From assembly GCA_963799775.1 (NCBI GenBank), contig CAWCYD010000003.1:1792001-1856000 (forward strand): a stretch of 64,000 nucleotides of DNA, written 5' to 3'. This DNA is from an uncultured archaeon. GTDB lineage: Archaea > Thermoproteota > Nitrososphaeria > Nitrososphaerales > Gagatemarchaeaceae. Each line of letters starts with the position of its first letter. The stretch's first letter is position 1. Below are positions 725 through 63,331 of the stretch, piece after piece. Under the pieces are notes generated by a model. The model was given only the letters and a program-made list of their open reading frames with translations, was not told the DNA's origin and did not search any database. The position numbers and the translations under genes are program-made.

Positions 725-2020
725 GTGAAGAATCAATACAGCAAGGTGATTGCGCTTGTCAAGCAGCACGAGAAGTGGTTCTCCGAGAGTCTGCCTCTCG
801 TCGCAAGCGAGAACGTCGCTTCGCGCCCTGTAAGGCAGGTTCTCGCCTCTGACCTGGGGCACAGGTATGCGGAAGGTTGGCCTGGTGAGCGCGTCTACGC
901 GGGCTGCAAGTTCATAGACCAGATCGAGCTGGAGGCCATGGGTCTCGCAAAGTCTCTCTTCAACGCGGAGTTCGCAGACGTCCGCCCTGTCTCTGGGGCC
1001 TGCGCGAACCTCGCGGTCTACTCTGCGCTCTCGGACCCTGGAGACACGATGATGGCGCTCTCAATCCCGAACGGTGGGCACATCTCCGCCGGGAAGAAGG
1101 AGTTCTCCGGAACAGCGGGTCTGGTCCACGGGCTGGACATCGAATACTTTGTCTTCGACAAGGAGAACATGAACATAGACGTGGACGAGACCAAGAAGAA
1201 GCTGAAGTCGATCAGCTCGGGAGGAAAGAAGTTGAAGATAGTGATGTTCGGGGGGAGCCTGTTCCTCTTCCCCCATCCCGTCAAGGAGCTCGCGGACGCG
1301 GTGCTCGAGGTCGGCGCTATTCCCTGCTATGATGCCGCCCATGTCGCGGGCCTGATTGCGGGCGGGCAGTTTCAGGCACCTCTCGGCGAAGGGGCCCATG
1401 TGATGACCTTCAGCACGCATAAGACGCTCTTCGGTCCGCAGGGAGGGGTGATTGTCTCGAAGGCTCAATACGGAGACGCCCTGAAGAAGTCCGTTTTCCC
1501 GGGAACTTCGAGCAACCACCATCTCCACAACGTGGCCGCGAAGGCCCTGACTTTCGCAGAGTTCCTGAAGTTCGGGGACGCGTACGCAAAAGCTGTGGTC
1601 TCTAACGCGAAGGTGTTGGCCGAGAGCCTAGCAGCGAAGGGAGAGAACGTGCTTGGGGAGAACCATGGGTATACGAGCTCGCACCAAGTAGCCATGGACG
1701 TGACAAGATATGGGGACGGCGGCAAGGTGGAAAAGAAGCTCGAGGACATGAACATCATCGCGAACCGCCAGCTGCTCCCTGGCGACCTCCAGGCTGGAAG
1801 GCACTACACGAACCCTGGCGGGATAAGGGTGGGAGTCTCCGAGCTAACCAGGTTGGGGATGGGGAAGAGCGAGATGAAGGAGGTGGCCGACATAATGCAC
1901 GTGGCACTGACCACCGACAAGGTCGAACTGGTGAAGAAGCGAGTGCGCTCGTTGCGCAGGCTCCACCAGCACGTGAAGTATTCCTTCGAGACCAACTCGC
2001 CGGCGTACTTTTACCGCTAG
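725..2020 (+). CDS. glyA: Serine hydroxymethyltransferase
   Basis: LVASEN, YAEGWPGERVYAGC, DAAHVAGL and the PLP lysine motif STHKTLFGPQGG. Confidence 0.97.
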   Translation: MKNQYSKVIALVKQHEKWFSESLPLVASENVASRPVRQVLASDLGHRYAEGWPGERVYAGCKFIDQIELEAMGLAKSLFNAEFADVRPVSGACANLAVYSALSDPGDTMMALSIPNGGHISAGKKEFSGTAGLVHGLDIEYFVFDKENMNIDVDETKKKLKSISSGGKKLKIVMFGGSLFLFPHPVKELADAVLEVGAIPCYDAAHVAGLIAGGQFQAPLGEGAHVMTFSTHKTLFGPQGGVIVSKAQYGDALKKSVFPGTSSNHHLHNVAAKALTFAEFLKFGDAYAKAVVSNAKVLAESLAAKGENVLGENHGYTSSHQVAMDVTRYGDGGKVEKKLEDMNIIANRQLLPGDLQAGRHYTNPGGIRVGVSELTRLGMGKSEMKEVADIMHVALTTDKVELVKKRVRSLRRLHQHVKYSFETNSPAYFYR

Positions 2021-22396: not shown

Positions 22397-22484
22397 TGGT
22401 GCGGGAGGTGGGATTCGAACCCACGAACCCCTAAGGGACGAGGTCCTGAGCCTCGCGCCGTTGACCAGGCTGGGCGACTCCCGC
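22397..22484 (-). tRNA. tRNA-Leu(CAG), no intron, CCA encoded
   Basis: GCGGGAG acceptor, CGAGG-CTCAGGA-CCTCG anticodon arm, variable arm, GTGGGTTCGAATCCCAC. Confidence 0.96.
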
Positions 22485-23069: not shown

Positions 23070-23146
23070 GCCGCGATAGCTCAGCCTGGTAGAGCGTTAC
23101 CTTGGTAAGGTAAAGGTCGCGTGTTCAATTCCCGCTCGCGGCTCCA
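23070..23146 (+). tRNA. tRNA-Thr(GGT), no intron, CCA encoded
   Basis: GCCGCGA/TCGCGGC acceptor, TTACC-TTGGTAA-GGTAA anticodon arm; one T-stem mismatch (GCGTG/CCCGC). Confidence 0.9.
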
Positions 23147-25708: not shown

Positions 25709-26618
25709 ATGTCACGTGACATCCGATGGATTTCATTGAGCGCGATTGCCGTGACTGTTATCTTGTTGCTAGCTGCGTTTGTGATTATTCACCCAATCAC
25801 AAATGACACGTCTACACGGTCTGCTAACTCATCTGTCGTCTCGGATGGGACAACCAGCGGCATCGTCGCCGCGGCTAGCACTGTCACAACAACCGCAACT
25901 AGGTTTAGCAACTTCACAACCACAGTGACTACGACAAGTACTTTTAGAACAACGAGGGTGGTCACGCCTCCTGGGGGAAACGGTACTCTCGTCTCAACTC
26001 TGAGTCCGAATGGAATCATGCTCTTAGCTGCTGTGAATGCTAGCAGTCTGACAGTTGGGCAATCTCTACAGTTCAATGTCTCCCTATTCAACACCCTCTC
26101 AACGGTGAACAGCACCCCCGTTTCTCACAATTGGCTGTTTCAGGGTATCCCAATTGCTCTGTGGGGTAACTGTGCCGTGAATGCCGGAGCGCCGGCTCCG
26201 GTTGAGGTCGATGTCTTCCAGGGGTACTATGCCCTACAGAACCTGTCCTCCGCGACGAAGAATGTCTTCGTTCCATCCAGCCAAGGCTGCCATGAATCGA
26301 CGAGCGTTAGCCAGGTAACATTCTGGCCCGCAAGCTCACTTGCAAACCTAACCTTGGTCGTCAACCAGAAAAACGTAACCTCGGGGCCACGTGAAATCAC
26401 AGATCAGTACACCACTCGAGGCTATTGGAACCTCACTTACAATATGACTCCCAACGACAGGAATCCCGAGGTTCACTGCTTTCATAACCTATGGAAGCGA
26501 AGCTGAAGGATTCGCGCCCACGCCGATTGCCTTTGTTCCTGGGACCTACACTTTGGCGGTTTCAGACGAGTGGGGCCTGGGGGTGTTACTGCATTTCTAC
26601 GTGGAACCTGATGGTTGA
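25709..26618 (+). CDS. Membrane-anchored Thr-rich partner protein, paralog 1 (frameshift near 26470)
   Basis: TM helix, Thr linker, SPNGIMLL...VSLFN; alternate frame ends PGTYTLAVSDEWG, matching the C-terminus of 33648-34514. Confidence 0.7.
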
Positions 26619-26773
26619 CGCGCCTAGAATTGGAAACTGCCCGCTATATAGATCTGTGGGATTCCAGCAAAAATCCACTCCTAGTAGATGTCTTCTCCTG
26701 CTCCTCCATTGTTGGACATTACCCCACTTGTCATTCCATCCTTAAAATGGTCGGCAGCTATGATAATAAAAAG

Positions 26774-26925
26774 TACCGGGGGCGGGATTCTCATGCCAGT
26801 GCATTTCGAGCCCGCGACCTTCGGGGATATCGCTATCCTCTCCGGATTTCACATCTTGGCCGATTATGAGTCTCGCCCACGCATGGGCGTAGCCGGCGCA
26901 ATGGGCCAAGCTATGCTACCCCGGC
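26774..26925 (-). tRNA. tRNA-Met(CAT), elongator type, with four introns (30/31, 37/38, 45/46, 59/60)
   Basis: Removing 26892-26872, 26864-26848, 26839-26819 and 26804-26788 gives a 76-nt cloverleaf (CCGGA-CTCATAA-TCCGG); each intron forms a BHB-type structure. Confidence 0.85.
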
Positions 26926-27051
26926 GACTTTCACGGTCCGAAGTAAGTATGTAATCTTTCCGTGGCGCTGCGAGATTTCTATGCGACTCTCCGTTCTCGG
27001 TCGCCACCCAGAATGCTTTTCTACACCAGCCCCGCGCGGCAGGTTCGGACA

Positions 27052-27183
27052 ATGCAGATTCCGGTGCTGGACGTCACCAGCTACTATGGCTTCCTGAGCG
27101 GGCTGATGATCACGCTCTTCATAGTCAGCCTGATAATCATCTTCGTCTACGAGTACGAAGTGCTCCGCCGACCAAAGACCTGA
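27052..27183 (+). CDS. Small single-TM protein
   Basis: MQIPVLDVTSYYGFLSGLMITLFIVSLIIIFVYEYEVLRRPKT; host-like codons. Confidence 0.5.
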   Translation: MQIPVLDVTSYYGFLSGLMITLFIVSLIIIFVYEYEVLRRPKT

Positions 27184-27202: not shown

Positions 27203-28378
27203 CTACGGCAGCCGCTCTATCTTTGTGGAGCGCCCGAGCTCAAGCGTCTCCGCTCCCATCTTCGAGAGTTGGACAGAAGCCCCATGGACCCGGAGCTTCT
27301 CCCCCGCCTTGATGTCGGCGATGATCTTCGACGTCTCGTCCCAAGCGACCGCCGTGATCTCTCCCGTGTCATCACCAAACACGACCTCACCCTTCTTGGC
27401 AAGCGACCCGTCCTTCAAGTTGACCTCTCGCACGCTCCCCTTTGAGAGGGCCATCACCTCGAGGTCGACGCTGCCCGAGGGGTGTTTCTCCACCTCCGCT
27501 ATCTTGACGAGCCGAGGCTTCTGCTCGGTGGCACCTTCGATTGTGTGGATCACCGTCGCACTGTCCCCGTGCAGCTCCGCCTGGTCCTGCCTCCCCTTCT
27601 TCTGCCTCAGGTTCGTCACCCGGATTTTGGCCCCAGGCTTCACGTCAGGCAGGTCGACGGCGTCCCAGACGACCACCCTCGTCGTCTTGTCGCGAGGGCC
27701 CTTTAGCTCGAACTGGGTGAGAGACCCCTGCGAGCCGTCGTCACGACGGACGAAAGTCGACCGCCTGGTCTCCATGACGACCAGCCCGTCCACTGCGAGG
27801 ACGATTTCTCCGTCCTCGATGTCATCCGGGTTCTTAGCCAACGAAGAGAGCGAGACCATCTTCGACGAGATGGCCGAGTCTGTGATGAGCTCAATCCTGC
27901 CCCGTTTCCCTAGGTTGAGGGCGGGCTTGCCGTCCAGACCCTGCTTGACGTACGCGCTCACAATCCGCACCGGCATGTCGACCGTCATCCCCGAGAGCTT
28001 GATCGCCTCCTCGTTGTCTTCCCAGATTGTGAGCCTGGCGATTCCGTTGGCGTCGAAGAGGTTCACCCTTCTGTAGTGCCCCACGCCGCTGCCATCCTTC
28101 TTCTTGAACTCCGCGACAGGGTAGATCGCCAGGATTCGAGCAATCACCGTGGTGTCGTTTGCGCCGACGTGAAGGTCCTTCAGTGTCAGGTCGGAGCTCA
28201 CCATGTGCTGGAGCTTCACCCCGAGCTCTCCGGCCACCAGGAAGAGGGCGCCCTGGTCCGTCAGGTACCCCGAGCCCACAGTCCGCTTCTTCTCCTGGAT
28301 CTGTTGCATCAACGAATCCCTGTCGATGTCAGGCCTGCTCCGCAGCACCTCGGCAATCAGACCTTCGAAATCGAGCAT
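27203..28378 (-). CDS. rpa: Replication protein A / multi-OB-fold ssDNA-binding protein
   Basis: GYLTDQGALFLVA N-terminus and three OB folds (ARLTIW, TRVVVW, GDDTGEITAVAW). Confidence 0.85.
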   Translation of the reverse strand: MLDFEGLIAEVLRSRPDIDRDSLMQQIQEKKRTVGSGYLTDQGALFLVAGELGVKLQHMVSSDLTLKDLHVGANDTTVIARILAIYPVAEFKKKDGSGVGHYRRVNLFDANGIARLTIWEDNEEAIKLSGMTVDMPVRIVSAYVKQGLDGKPALNLGKRGRIELITDSAISSKMVSLSSLAKNPDDIEDGEIVLAVDGLVVMETRRSTFVRRDDGSQGSLTQFELKGPRDKTTRVVVWDAVDLPDVKPGAKIRVTNLRQKKGRQDQAELHGDSATVIHTIEGATEQKPRLVKIAEVEKHPSGSVDLEVMALSKGSVREVNLKDGSLAKKGEVVFGDDTGEITAVAWDETSKIIADIKAGEKLRVHGASVQLSKMGAETLELGRSTKIERLP

Positions 28379-30230: not shown

Positions 30231-30393
30231 GGGGTCGTCGGCTAGGCCAATCCGAATCACTTCGGCTTGGGGCTAGTCTGGTCTAGGCTTCAATCACAAA
30301 TCGGAAGATGCCTCGGGAAGAGAGCAGATTTGCAGTGCGAATCTGTCTCGAGAACGCTTGAGACCCCCGGTTCAAATCCGGGCGACCCCACCA
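30231..30393 (+). tRNA. tRNA-Pro(CGG) with three introns (15/16, 29/30, 37/38), CCA encoded
   Basis: Removing 30246-30276, 30294-30309 and 30318-30354 gives GGGGTCG/CGACCCC acceptor and CAAGC-CTCGGGC-GCTTG anticodon arm; central BHB helices GGCT/GGCT, CTTC/GAAG, CTCG/CGAG. Confidence 0.88.
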
Positions 30394-34691: not shown

Positions 34692-34792
34692 AGCCACAGA
34701 AGGGATTTGAACCCTCGACCTTCTGCTTACAAGGCAGTTGAGCCGAGAAGCATTCATTCTCGTATGCTCTAGCCAGGCTGAGCTACTGTGGC
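34692..34792 (-). tRNA. tRNA-Thr(TGT) with a 26-nt intron at 27/28
   Basis: GCCACAG/CTGTGGC acceptor; removing 34763-34738 gives TCTGC-CTTGTAA-GCAGA; BHB central helix GAGC/GCTC and intron hairpin CGAGAA/TTCTCG. Confidence 0.9.
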
Positions 34793-63185: not shown

Positions 63186-63331
63186 TGGTGCGAGAGGTGG
63201 GATTCGAACCCACGAACGCCTAAACGAGCGGATTTCTCCTTGCGTCGCCGTAGGCCCTGGAGCGACATCTGATCTTGAGTATCGGCGCCGAATCGGCCCC
63301 GCCGCCGTTGACCAGGCTTAGCTACTCTCGC
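63186..63331 (-). tRNA. tRNA-Leu(CAA) with two introns (30/31, 37/38), CCA encoded
   Basis: Removing 63298-63281 and 63273-63234 gives GCGGA-CTCAAGA-TCCGC; BHB helices CGGC/GCCG and CTCA/GGAG. Confidence 0.9.

Follow-up and report, generated by a model that had tools for sequence, protein, structure and literature searches.

Half of a 152-nt locus in the genome of a soil archaeon of the family Gagatemarchaeaceae was read in a preliminary description as intron, divided over four places of a single tRNA-Met gene. Is such a locus a working gene, and if so, how could its precursor be spliced? The question also bears on how many introns one archaeal tRNA gene can carry. The preliminary description gave up to three for the multi-intron tRNAs of Thermoproteales, and the relevant passages of Fujishima and Kanai 2014 (PMC4033280; at most three introns per archaeal tRNA gene) and of the tRNAscan-SE 2.0 paper (PMC8450103; up to three) agree with it. 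The figure does not extend to Asgard archaea, for which the relevant passage of a 2026 bioRxiv preprint (10.64898/2026.10.13.758758) gives "up to five in a single gene". Going by these passages, four introns exceed the figure of PMC4033280 and PMC8450103 but are not unprecedented; such genes are known, and four is rare. Full-text literature searches on four introns together with tRNA or pre-tRNA returned no archaeal four-intron case.

We examined the locus within a 64,000-nt stretch of DNA (hereafter the window), in the remainder of its genome, and in related genomes. We read it as a functional elongator tRNA-Met(CAU) gene of a soil archaeon, probably the only one in its genome, with a precursor that would be spliced by EndA and RtcB and would lose intron 2 last. 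We place the probability of this joint reading at roughly 0.88.

Anatomy of the gene and its spliced product

The preliminary description did not name a strand. The gene is on the minus strand, reading from 26925 at the 5' end down to 26774 at the 3' end (Table 1). We sliced the 152 nt into consecutive pieces of 33, 21, 7, 17, 8, 21, 14, 17 and 14 nt and joined the odd-numbered ones; slicing and ARAGORN reproduced exactly the five exons (33, 7, 8, 14 and 14 nt) and four introns (21, 17, 21 and 17 nt) that had been claimed. Introns make up 76 of the 152 nt, which is the half that had been proposed, and the spliced product is 76 nt long. ARAGORN called this product tRNA-Met(cat) and found no gene in the unspliced 152 nt. 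The locus was likewise missed when the window was scanned with ARAGORN or with Rfam at the gathering score, and when positions 26600-27100 were searched with Rfam at E ≤ 10. Open reading frames overlapping the locus are short (55-88 aa); of the longer flanking frames, one ends at 26745 and one starts at 27203.

The spliced product has a 7-bp acceptor stem that includes a wobble pair, G1-U72, a D-stem of 3 bp with an additional U13-U22 mismatch, and anticodon and T stems of 5 bp each. The anticodon stem is CCGGA/TCCGG. Exon 2 (ACTCATA) places CAT in a 7-nt anticodon loop with U33 and a purine at 37, and CCA is not encoded at the 3' end of the gene. Sliding the boundaries by 1-2 nt leaves the product unchanged, at 29/30 or 30/31 for intron 1, 36/37-38/39 for intron 2, 43/44-45/46 for intron 3, and 57/58-59/60 for intron 4. 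Among these equivalent boundaries we chose 30/31, 37/38, 45/46 and 59/60 because bulge-helix-bulge (BHB) geometry selects them. These are the sites originally given, and the template-free search described below agrees with them.

Two residues are unusual for an elongator tRNA-Met, namely G1-U72 and C54. G1-U72 (window 26774-26775 and 26925) is found in this genome and its six closest relatives (L002-L007), with G1-C72 in all other orthologs; counted over distinct four-intron orthologs, the two forms occur in 5/11 and 6/11. C54, correctly pointed out before as standing in place of T and pairing within the BHB of intron 4, is located in the central helix of that motif and is kept throughout the family even in genes without the T-loop intron. 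One ortholog has A54, and forms from Bathyarchaeia have T54.

Table 1. Features of the tRNA-Met locus in window coordinates. Two-number sites and residue numbers follow tRNA positions unless stated otherwise.
Feature	Window position	Strand	Evidence
Exon 1, 33 nt: acceptor 5' strand, D-arm (11-nt D-loop), position 26, anticodon-stem 27-30	26893..26925	-	100% 33-nt match of spliced product; conserved in all orthologs
Intron 1, 21 nt, at 30/31	26872..26892	-	BHB; found in all 50 family genomes with the gene
Exon 2, 7 nt: position 31 and anticodon-loop 32-37, anticodon CAT	26865..26871	-	Invariant in 11/11 four-intron orthologs
Intron 2, 17 nt, at the canonical 37/38 site	26848..26864	-	BHB
Exon 3, 8 nt: positions 38-45 (anticodon stem 3' strand, start of variable loop)	26840..26847	-	Spliced product; 27-43 covariation
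Intron 3, 21 nt, at 45/46	26819..26839	-	BHB; missing in 25 family genomes, junction there as predicted
Exon 4, 14 nt: positions 46-59 (remainder of variable loop, T-stem 5' strand, T-loop to 59, C54)	26805..26818	-	Spliced product, orthologs
Intron 4, 17 nt, at 59/60 in the T-loop	26788..26804	-	BHB; missing in 7 three-intron and 5 two-intron family genomes, junction there as predicted
Exon 5, 14 nt: positions 60-73 (end of T-loop, T-stem 3' strand, acceptor 3' strand, discriminator A73)	26774..26787	-	Spliced product
A/T-rich box AAAGATTACATA, candidate archaeal BRE/TATA promoter	26948..26959 (23-34 nt upstream of 5' end)	-	Identical in the five closest orthologs displayed (L002, L003, L006, L007 and this gene)
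T5 run, candidate terminator, starting 2 nt past A73	26768..26772	-	Similar T-run in L002, L003 and L006
7-nt stretch in the intron 2 hairpin loop, perfect Watson-Crick complement of the D-loop	26855..26861	-	Orthologs, covariation
D-loop nucleotides (pre-tRNA 16-22) complementary to the intron 2 stretch	26904..26910	-	Orthologs, covariation

Bulge-helix-bulge motifs of the four introns

Each of the four introns has a central helix between two 3-nt bulges and at least one flanking helix of at least two pairs. The central helices are those listed in the preliminary description: CGCC/GGCG (4/4 pairs), CTCA/TGTG (3/4), CCGG/CCGA (3/4) and CTCG/TGAG (4/4, including one G-U) for introns 1-4. The internal hairpins that it had assigned to every intron are also present, with 5, 2, 5 and 3 bp in the same order. 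The outer helices range from none in intron 3 and 1 bp in intron 1 to a 5-bp helix in intron 4, where the T-stem completes a full hBHBh' motif. For intron 2 the outer helix is the anticodon stem, which offers 2 bp before removal of intron 1 and 5 bp after it. Across 11 distinct four-intron orthologs, the fraction of central-helix cells that are paired is 100%, 77.3%, 88.6% and 97.7% for introns 1, 2, 3 and 4, respectively, and the central helix of intron 3 reaches 4/4 in 6 of the 11. Intron 3 follows the layout of the other three introns, with 1 bulge nucleotide, a hairpin, 4 helix nucleotides and 2 bulge nucleotides.

Relatives carry two, three or four introns at fixed sites

We searched for orthologs by DNA similarity (cut-off E ≤ 1e-6) in 60 related genomes and then in all 97 genomes of the family. 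The tRNA-Met ortholog was found in 50 of the 97, spread over 10 genera. Four introns are present in 13 of the 50 genomes, 8 of them in the same genus and 5 across three other genera. Another 32 carry three introns, of which 25 lack only the one at 45/46 and 7 only the one at 59/60, and the remaining 5 have the two-intron form with introns at 30/31 and 37/38. The introns at these latter two sites are present in 50/50. Three of the 50 parses (G029, G031 and G095) were made by eye. Where relatives have no intron at 45/46 or 59/60, their junctions equal the predicted spliced junctions, and this match supports the predicted intron parse.

Six other genomes, assembled independently, carry near-identical genes of 151-152 nt, and six further ones carry more distant four-intron forms. 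The gene in the Candidatus Gagatemarchaeum stordalenia record is identical to that of three genomes of the same genus. An uninterrupted ortholog of 75 nt also exists, in a Bathyarchaeota MAG (L052); it matches the spliced product at 67/76 positions and scores 71.4 bits as an Rfam tRNA. A scan of species representatives with a 20-nt pattern yielded 76 loci, of which 55 were full genes under our extraction rule, the other 21 being left out for having no matching 3' end within 260 nt. The MAGs of the relatives come from soil, peat and groundwater.

Two atypical cases appeared among the orthologs. Locus L030 (positions 1461-1538, minus strand, genome G023; L093 is identical) holds a truncated 78-nt form without the anticodon, in which a 5' part that breaks off inside intron 1 runs straight on into the end of exon 4, followed by intron 4 and exon 5. 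This form, in a genome that is 87% complete, could have arisen by deletion or mis-assembly or could be a pseudogene. We also considered a split gene, and discarded the idea upon finding that the 14-nt match to the missing part elsewhere in G023 has no tRNA context. Genome G067 contains two slightly different three-intron copies (L115 and L117) on short contigs (C211 and C191), which may mean that the bin mixes strains or that the gene is truly duplicated.

Covariation supports the helices of exons and introns

To quantify the conservation of pairing, we aligned the 11 distinct four-intron sequences (alignment A1) and scored a structure in which the acceptor stem, the T-stem and two D-stem pairs were combined with the motifs of introns 1, 3 and 4. 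In this alignment, 95.0% of 417 cells were paired and 9 of 39 pairs showed compensatory changes. The covariation score was reached by 0 of 500 shuffles, and slid controls paired in 35-50% of cells. Three pairs with compensatory changes belong to the hairpin of intron 1, and the pair between position 57 and intron 4 occurs as G-C, A-U and G-U. The anticodon stem pairs across two introns, with pair 27-43 changing from C-G to U-A in 2/11 orthologs. A further covariation links position 43 to its intron 3 partner (alignment columns 86-104) and probably reflects one event, the two sequences being close relatives.

These data bear on whether the 21-nt insert at 45/46 is an intron at all. The gene could instead have only three introns and retain this insert as a long, class II-like variable arm formed by its 5-bp hairpin. 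The variable region is the one place that tolerates a hairpin insert, and covariation within the inner hairpin is expected for an arm as well. However, an arm has no need of a central helix between positions 40-43 and the 3' part of the insert, and this helix is complete in 6/11 orthologs. The insert's pair with position 43 changes from G-C to A-U together with the anticodon-stem partner of that position, and in 25 family genomes the variable loop has the normal 5 nt and the junction lies exactly where it was predicted. The layout shared with the other three introns also argues against an arm. We consider retention of the insert very unlikely and favor removal of all four introns.

Probably the only elongator tRNA-Met gene of the genome

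A conserved structure leaves the question of whether this is the gene that the organism uses. The genome assembly totals 2.47 Mb over 3 contigs, and marker genes put its completeness at 81.67%; its G+C content of 58.8% fits the 54-62% given for Gagatemarchaeaceae in the relevant passage of PMC10640624. Rfam found 27 tRNAs at the gathering score and ARAGORN 32 with introns allowed. In our own census, a gene was taken as credible if it had 7/7 acceptor pairs and an agreeing ARAGORN call. By number of introns, 4 credible genes have none, 17 have one, 7 have two, 2 have three, and 1, the tRNA-Met gene, has four; a further three-intron gene, for tRNA-Tyr, has 6/7 acceptor pairs. The census requires perfect 5-bp stems and no more than one intron in the T-arm, misses several tRNAs that ARAGORN or Rfam report, and skipped six seeds at two places.

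Three credible genes with a CAT anticodon emerged from this incomplete census. Two marks distinguish archaeal initiator tRNAs: the first acceptor pair is A1-U72, and the anticodon stem has consecutive G-C pairs at its foot. One CAT gene (C3:1588583-1588697, two introns) has A1-U72 and a GGG/CCC anticodon stem and is initiator-like, whereas the four-intron gene is without those marks, having G1-U72 and CCGGA/TCCGG. The third (C3:158033-158145, also two introns) shares its acceptor and D-arm with the genome's own tRNA-Ile(GAT) and, going by this likeness, is Ile2-like, which would leave Met as the identity of the four-intron gene. A blastn-short search of the same genome with the mature tRNA-Met found no second locus resembling it. 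The proposed check of whether another elongator gene exists was favorable within the limits of the census, and the four-intron gene is probably the only elongator tRNA-Met gene of the genome.

Some candidates were set aside along the way. ARAGORN's only other "tRNA-Met" in the genome (C3:1416884-1416977, minus strand) is read by the census as tRNA-Gly(GCC) with a 19-nt intron at 29/30. The further Met-like loci from blastn-short are a tRNA-Ser(TGA) according to the census and, by eye, a probable tRNA-Glu(TTC).

The locus might also be a decaying or silent copy, with a working elongator tRNA-Met gene elsewhere that is unassembled or invisible to the census. A genome of 81.67% completeness in 3 contigs, an incomplete census, and the unusual G1-U72 and C54 all leave room for such a copy. 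They are outweighed, in our judgment, by the conservation of the gene in 50 genomes of 10 genera with intact helices and compensatory changes. G1-U72 itself is common to seven genomes of the closest clade. Among the orthologs displayed, the promoter-like box is found in the five closest and a T-run in four, and no other locus resembles the mature sequence. A silent copy is highly improbable on this evidence, and a functional gene is the reading that we retain. As for the flanking elements, in other genera a TTTAAT/TTAAAT box stands as far from the gene as the AAAGATTACATA box does here, and no clear T-run is seen in L007 or in the more distant orthologs displayed.

A template-free search places the locus above the chance background

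Relaxed BHB motifs by themselves are no evidence of introns. They are commonplace, at about 0.7 candidates per base in a permissive scan of this genome, and the 2026 preprint (10.64898/2026.10.13.758758) expresses the same caution in its passages on relaxed motifs. The genome-wide search behind the census was seeded on T-arms, was given cloverleaf rules and BHB candidates as its only inputs, and allowed up to 5 excisions. It produced 539 raw cloverleaf-like clusters, most of them noise. At the tRNA-Met locus it returned the identical four introns, and this was the sole four-excision solution in the genome with 7/7 acceptor pairs and an ARAGORN call matching the anticodon. Seven five-intron solutions that passed the filter were rejected as junk-like, having introns of up to 91 nt and products unlike tRNA.

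Three independent lines, namely the template-free search, the relatives and covariation, put the locus above the chance background. Common as relaxed motifs are, a chance arrangement or assembly artefact has a negligible claim given near-identical genes in six independent assemblies, distant four-intron forms in six more, covarying helices and an uninterrupted ortholog. A search of sequencing runs for this DNA returned no RNA run and three DNA runs from soil, all of one study, the best matching 0.26 of its sequence words.

A predicted splicing pathway with intron 2 last

We asked next how the four introns could be removed. Two EndA paralogs (C3:491964-492206, minus strand, and C3:1241691-1241945, plus strand) are encoded in the genome along with one RtcB, and both Pfam EndA domains are present in each of the paralogs. 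The 187-aa EndA matches solved EndA chains at 2.9e-42 (2cv8_A), and the 201-aa EndA does so more weakly (5x89_A, 5.9e-22). The relevant passage of PMC4090602 assigns Thaumarchaeota an alpha2beta2, or (alpha-beta)2, EndA, from which, together with the unequal paralogs, we infer that the two proteins form an (alpha-beta)2 enzyme. This form is, according to PMC5829648, one of two types able to cut non-canonical introns.

The precursor would be about 152 nt, transcribed from the A/T-rich box near -28 to the T-run just past A73, because the upstream box, the downstream T-run and the unencoded CCA all point to that extent. The two-subunit EndA would then cut in each 3-nt bulge, RtcB would join the exons, and CCA would be added afterwards. 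The preliminary description held that overlapping BHB motifs imply ordered splicing, and structural logic supports it. The central helix of motif 1 takes up nucleotides 25-28 and the bulge 29-30, and motif 3 takes up 40-43, while the outer helix of motif 2 consists of 27-31 paired with 39-43. Motifs 1, 3 and 4 can therefore all form together, but motifs 1 and 3 exclude the full motif 2, with which they share nucleotides. We would expect introns 1, 3 and 4 to leave first, in any sequence, and the canonical intron 2 to leave last, since motifs 1 and 3 occupy the anticodon-stem strands that motif 2 needs.

Predicted folds gave a mixed picture of this pathway. The minimum-free-energy fold of the precursor (-64.6 kcal/mol) contains motif 3 and part of motif 4, and motif 1 is absent from it; requiring motifs 1, 3 and 4 in one fold raises the energy by 4 kcal/mol. 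In the intermediate that retains only intron 2, the anticodon stem is predicted to form. The absence of motif 1 from the energy minimum counts against our main reading, as do the 3/4 central helices of introns 2 and 3 and the outer helices of introns 3 (0 bp) and 1 (1 bp).

Intron 2 carries a conserved complement of the D-loop

Beyond the splicing motifs, intron 2 contains a 7-nt complement to the D-loop (Table 1). In alignment A1, 97.4% of the cells of this pairing were paired across the 11 orthologs, with compensatory changes in 2 pairs, and slid controls paired in 2-55%. At least six contiguous Watson-Crick pairs between intron 2 and the D-arm are found in 34 of the 43 distinct orthologs that have introns at 30/31 and 37/38; the run is 7 pairs in 27 of them, 8 in 4 and 6 in 3. 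The other introns of the same genes reach 2-6 contiguous pairs with the D-arm. The pairing occurs in two registers. No intron of the 26 other intron-bearing tRNAs in the census of this genome reached 7 contiguous pairs, and the D-loop complement is specific to the tRNA-Met gene. Helices of the energy minimum that would extend the duplex (11-14/73-76 and 24-27/60-63) showed no covariation, so we kept the 7-bp core alone. This core is compatible with motifs 1, 3 and 4 in a single fold.

One idea is that the complement serves as a built-in folding lock, the intron acting as an intramolecular chaperone that fixes the order of the four splicing steps. The duplex would hold the D-loop and the adjacent 3' strand of motif 2 while introns 1, 3 and 4 meet EndA, and only once these three were gone would the anticodon stem form and expose intron 2. 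We find this role doubtful, and we know of no chaperone-like ordering role described for archaeal tRNA introns. Pairing between intron and exon beyond the splicing motif does have a precedent in the box C/D guide inside the intron of Haloferax pre-tRNA-Trp. In both cases, part of an intron is complementary to the tRNA body away from the splice sites. Unlike the Haloferax intron, intron 2 is only 17 nt long, which we judge too short for a box C/D guide, and its target is the D-loop rather than the anticodon arm. The covarying pairing offers a small lead on how multi-intron precursors fold.

Relation to known multi-intron tRNA genes

The host belongs to the non-ammonia-oxidising Thaumarchaeota (Nitrososphaerota). 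Among the closest archaeal parallels, as far as the passages of the cited sources go, are the multi-intron tRNA genes of Thermoproteales, which resemble the tRNA-Met gene in combining strict and relaxed BHB motifs, in relying on a two-subunit EndA, in escaping standard gene finders, and in having neighboring motifs that can form only in sequence. They differ in having at most three introns and in belonging to hyperthermophiles, whereas the gene described here has four and its host is a mesophilic soil thaumarchaeon. Transposition has been described for the tRNA introns of Thermoproteales.

Asgard archaea provide a second comparison. In the relevant passages, Valentin-Alvarado et al. 2024 (PMC11291895) count 228 introns across three Asgard genomes, where over half of the genes have several. 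From such passages, most Asgard tRNAs are interrupted, many by several introns at non-canonical sites, and intron boundaries are of the BHB type, as in the tRNA-Met gene. Also similar are the failure of tRNAscan-SE to find some of them and the gain and loss of introns among close relatives. Asgard archaea are, however, of a different phylum and reach five introns, while most credible tRNAs in the present genome have 0-2 introns and the tRNA-Met gene is an outlier.

The predicted order has an experimental counterpart in a eukaryotic alga. For the three-intron tRNA-Ile of Cyanidioschyzon merolae, the passage in PMC3728597 reports RT-PCR showing that the outer introns are removed before the one at 37/38. 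Both genes combine introns in the body arms with one at 37/38, and the same removal order is predicted here; unlike the three-intron algal gene, for which the order is experimental, the order of the tRNA-Met introns is deduced from the overlap of their motifs.

Nearer to the host, the passage of PMC8450103 on the second intron model of tRNAscan-SE 2.0 counts 107 non-canonical introns in the Thaumarchaeota genomes studied. These are introns of the same kind in the same phylum, and the Thaumarchaeota passages of that paper mention no four-intron gene and do not name Gagatemarchaeaceae. The paper describing Gagatemarchaeaceae (PMC10640624) used tRNAscan-SE, and the word "intron" is absent from it. 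Judged from its sequence and that of its relatives, the locus is real and conserved, and very probably a functional four-intron elongator tRNA-Met gene, of which we found no report in its lineage.

These results extend heavily interrupted tRNA genes to common archaea of acid soils. They also imply that default tRNA finders can miss an essential tRNA, with consequences for tRNA counts and for the estimated completeness of such genomes. The family constitutes a natural series of two, three and four introns at fixed sites in 50 genomes, useful for studying intron gain and loss and the action of EndA on overlapping motifs.

Other tRNA genes in the window and genome

Introns at 29/30 were also observed in tRNA-Arg(GCG) (19 nt) and in two tRNA-Pro genes (13 and 16 nt). 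The window contains a tRNA-Pro(CGG) gene of 160 nt at 30231-30390 on the plus strand, with three introns: one of 31 nt lies in the D-loop, one of 16 nt at 29/30 and one of 37 nt at 37/38. This gene was missed by Rfam, and ARAGORN with introns allowed mis-parsed it as tRNA-Pro(tgg) with one 64-nt intron. Its paralog, tRNA-Pro(TGG) at C3:1568022-1568171, has introns at the same three sites. Also in the window are intron-free genes for tRNA-Leu(CAG) (22397-22484, minus strand) and tRNA-Thr(GGT) (23070-23146, plus strand), as well as a tRNA-Thr(TGT) gene with a 26-nt intron at 27/28 (34692-34792, minus strand). Finally, a 143-nt Rfam tRNA match of 32.2 bits at 63189-63331 on the minus strand was called by ARAGORN as tRNA-Ser(CGA) with a 58-nt intron.
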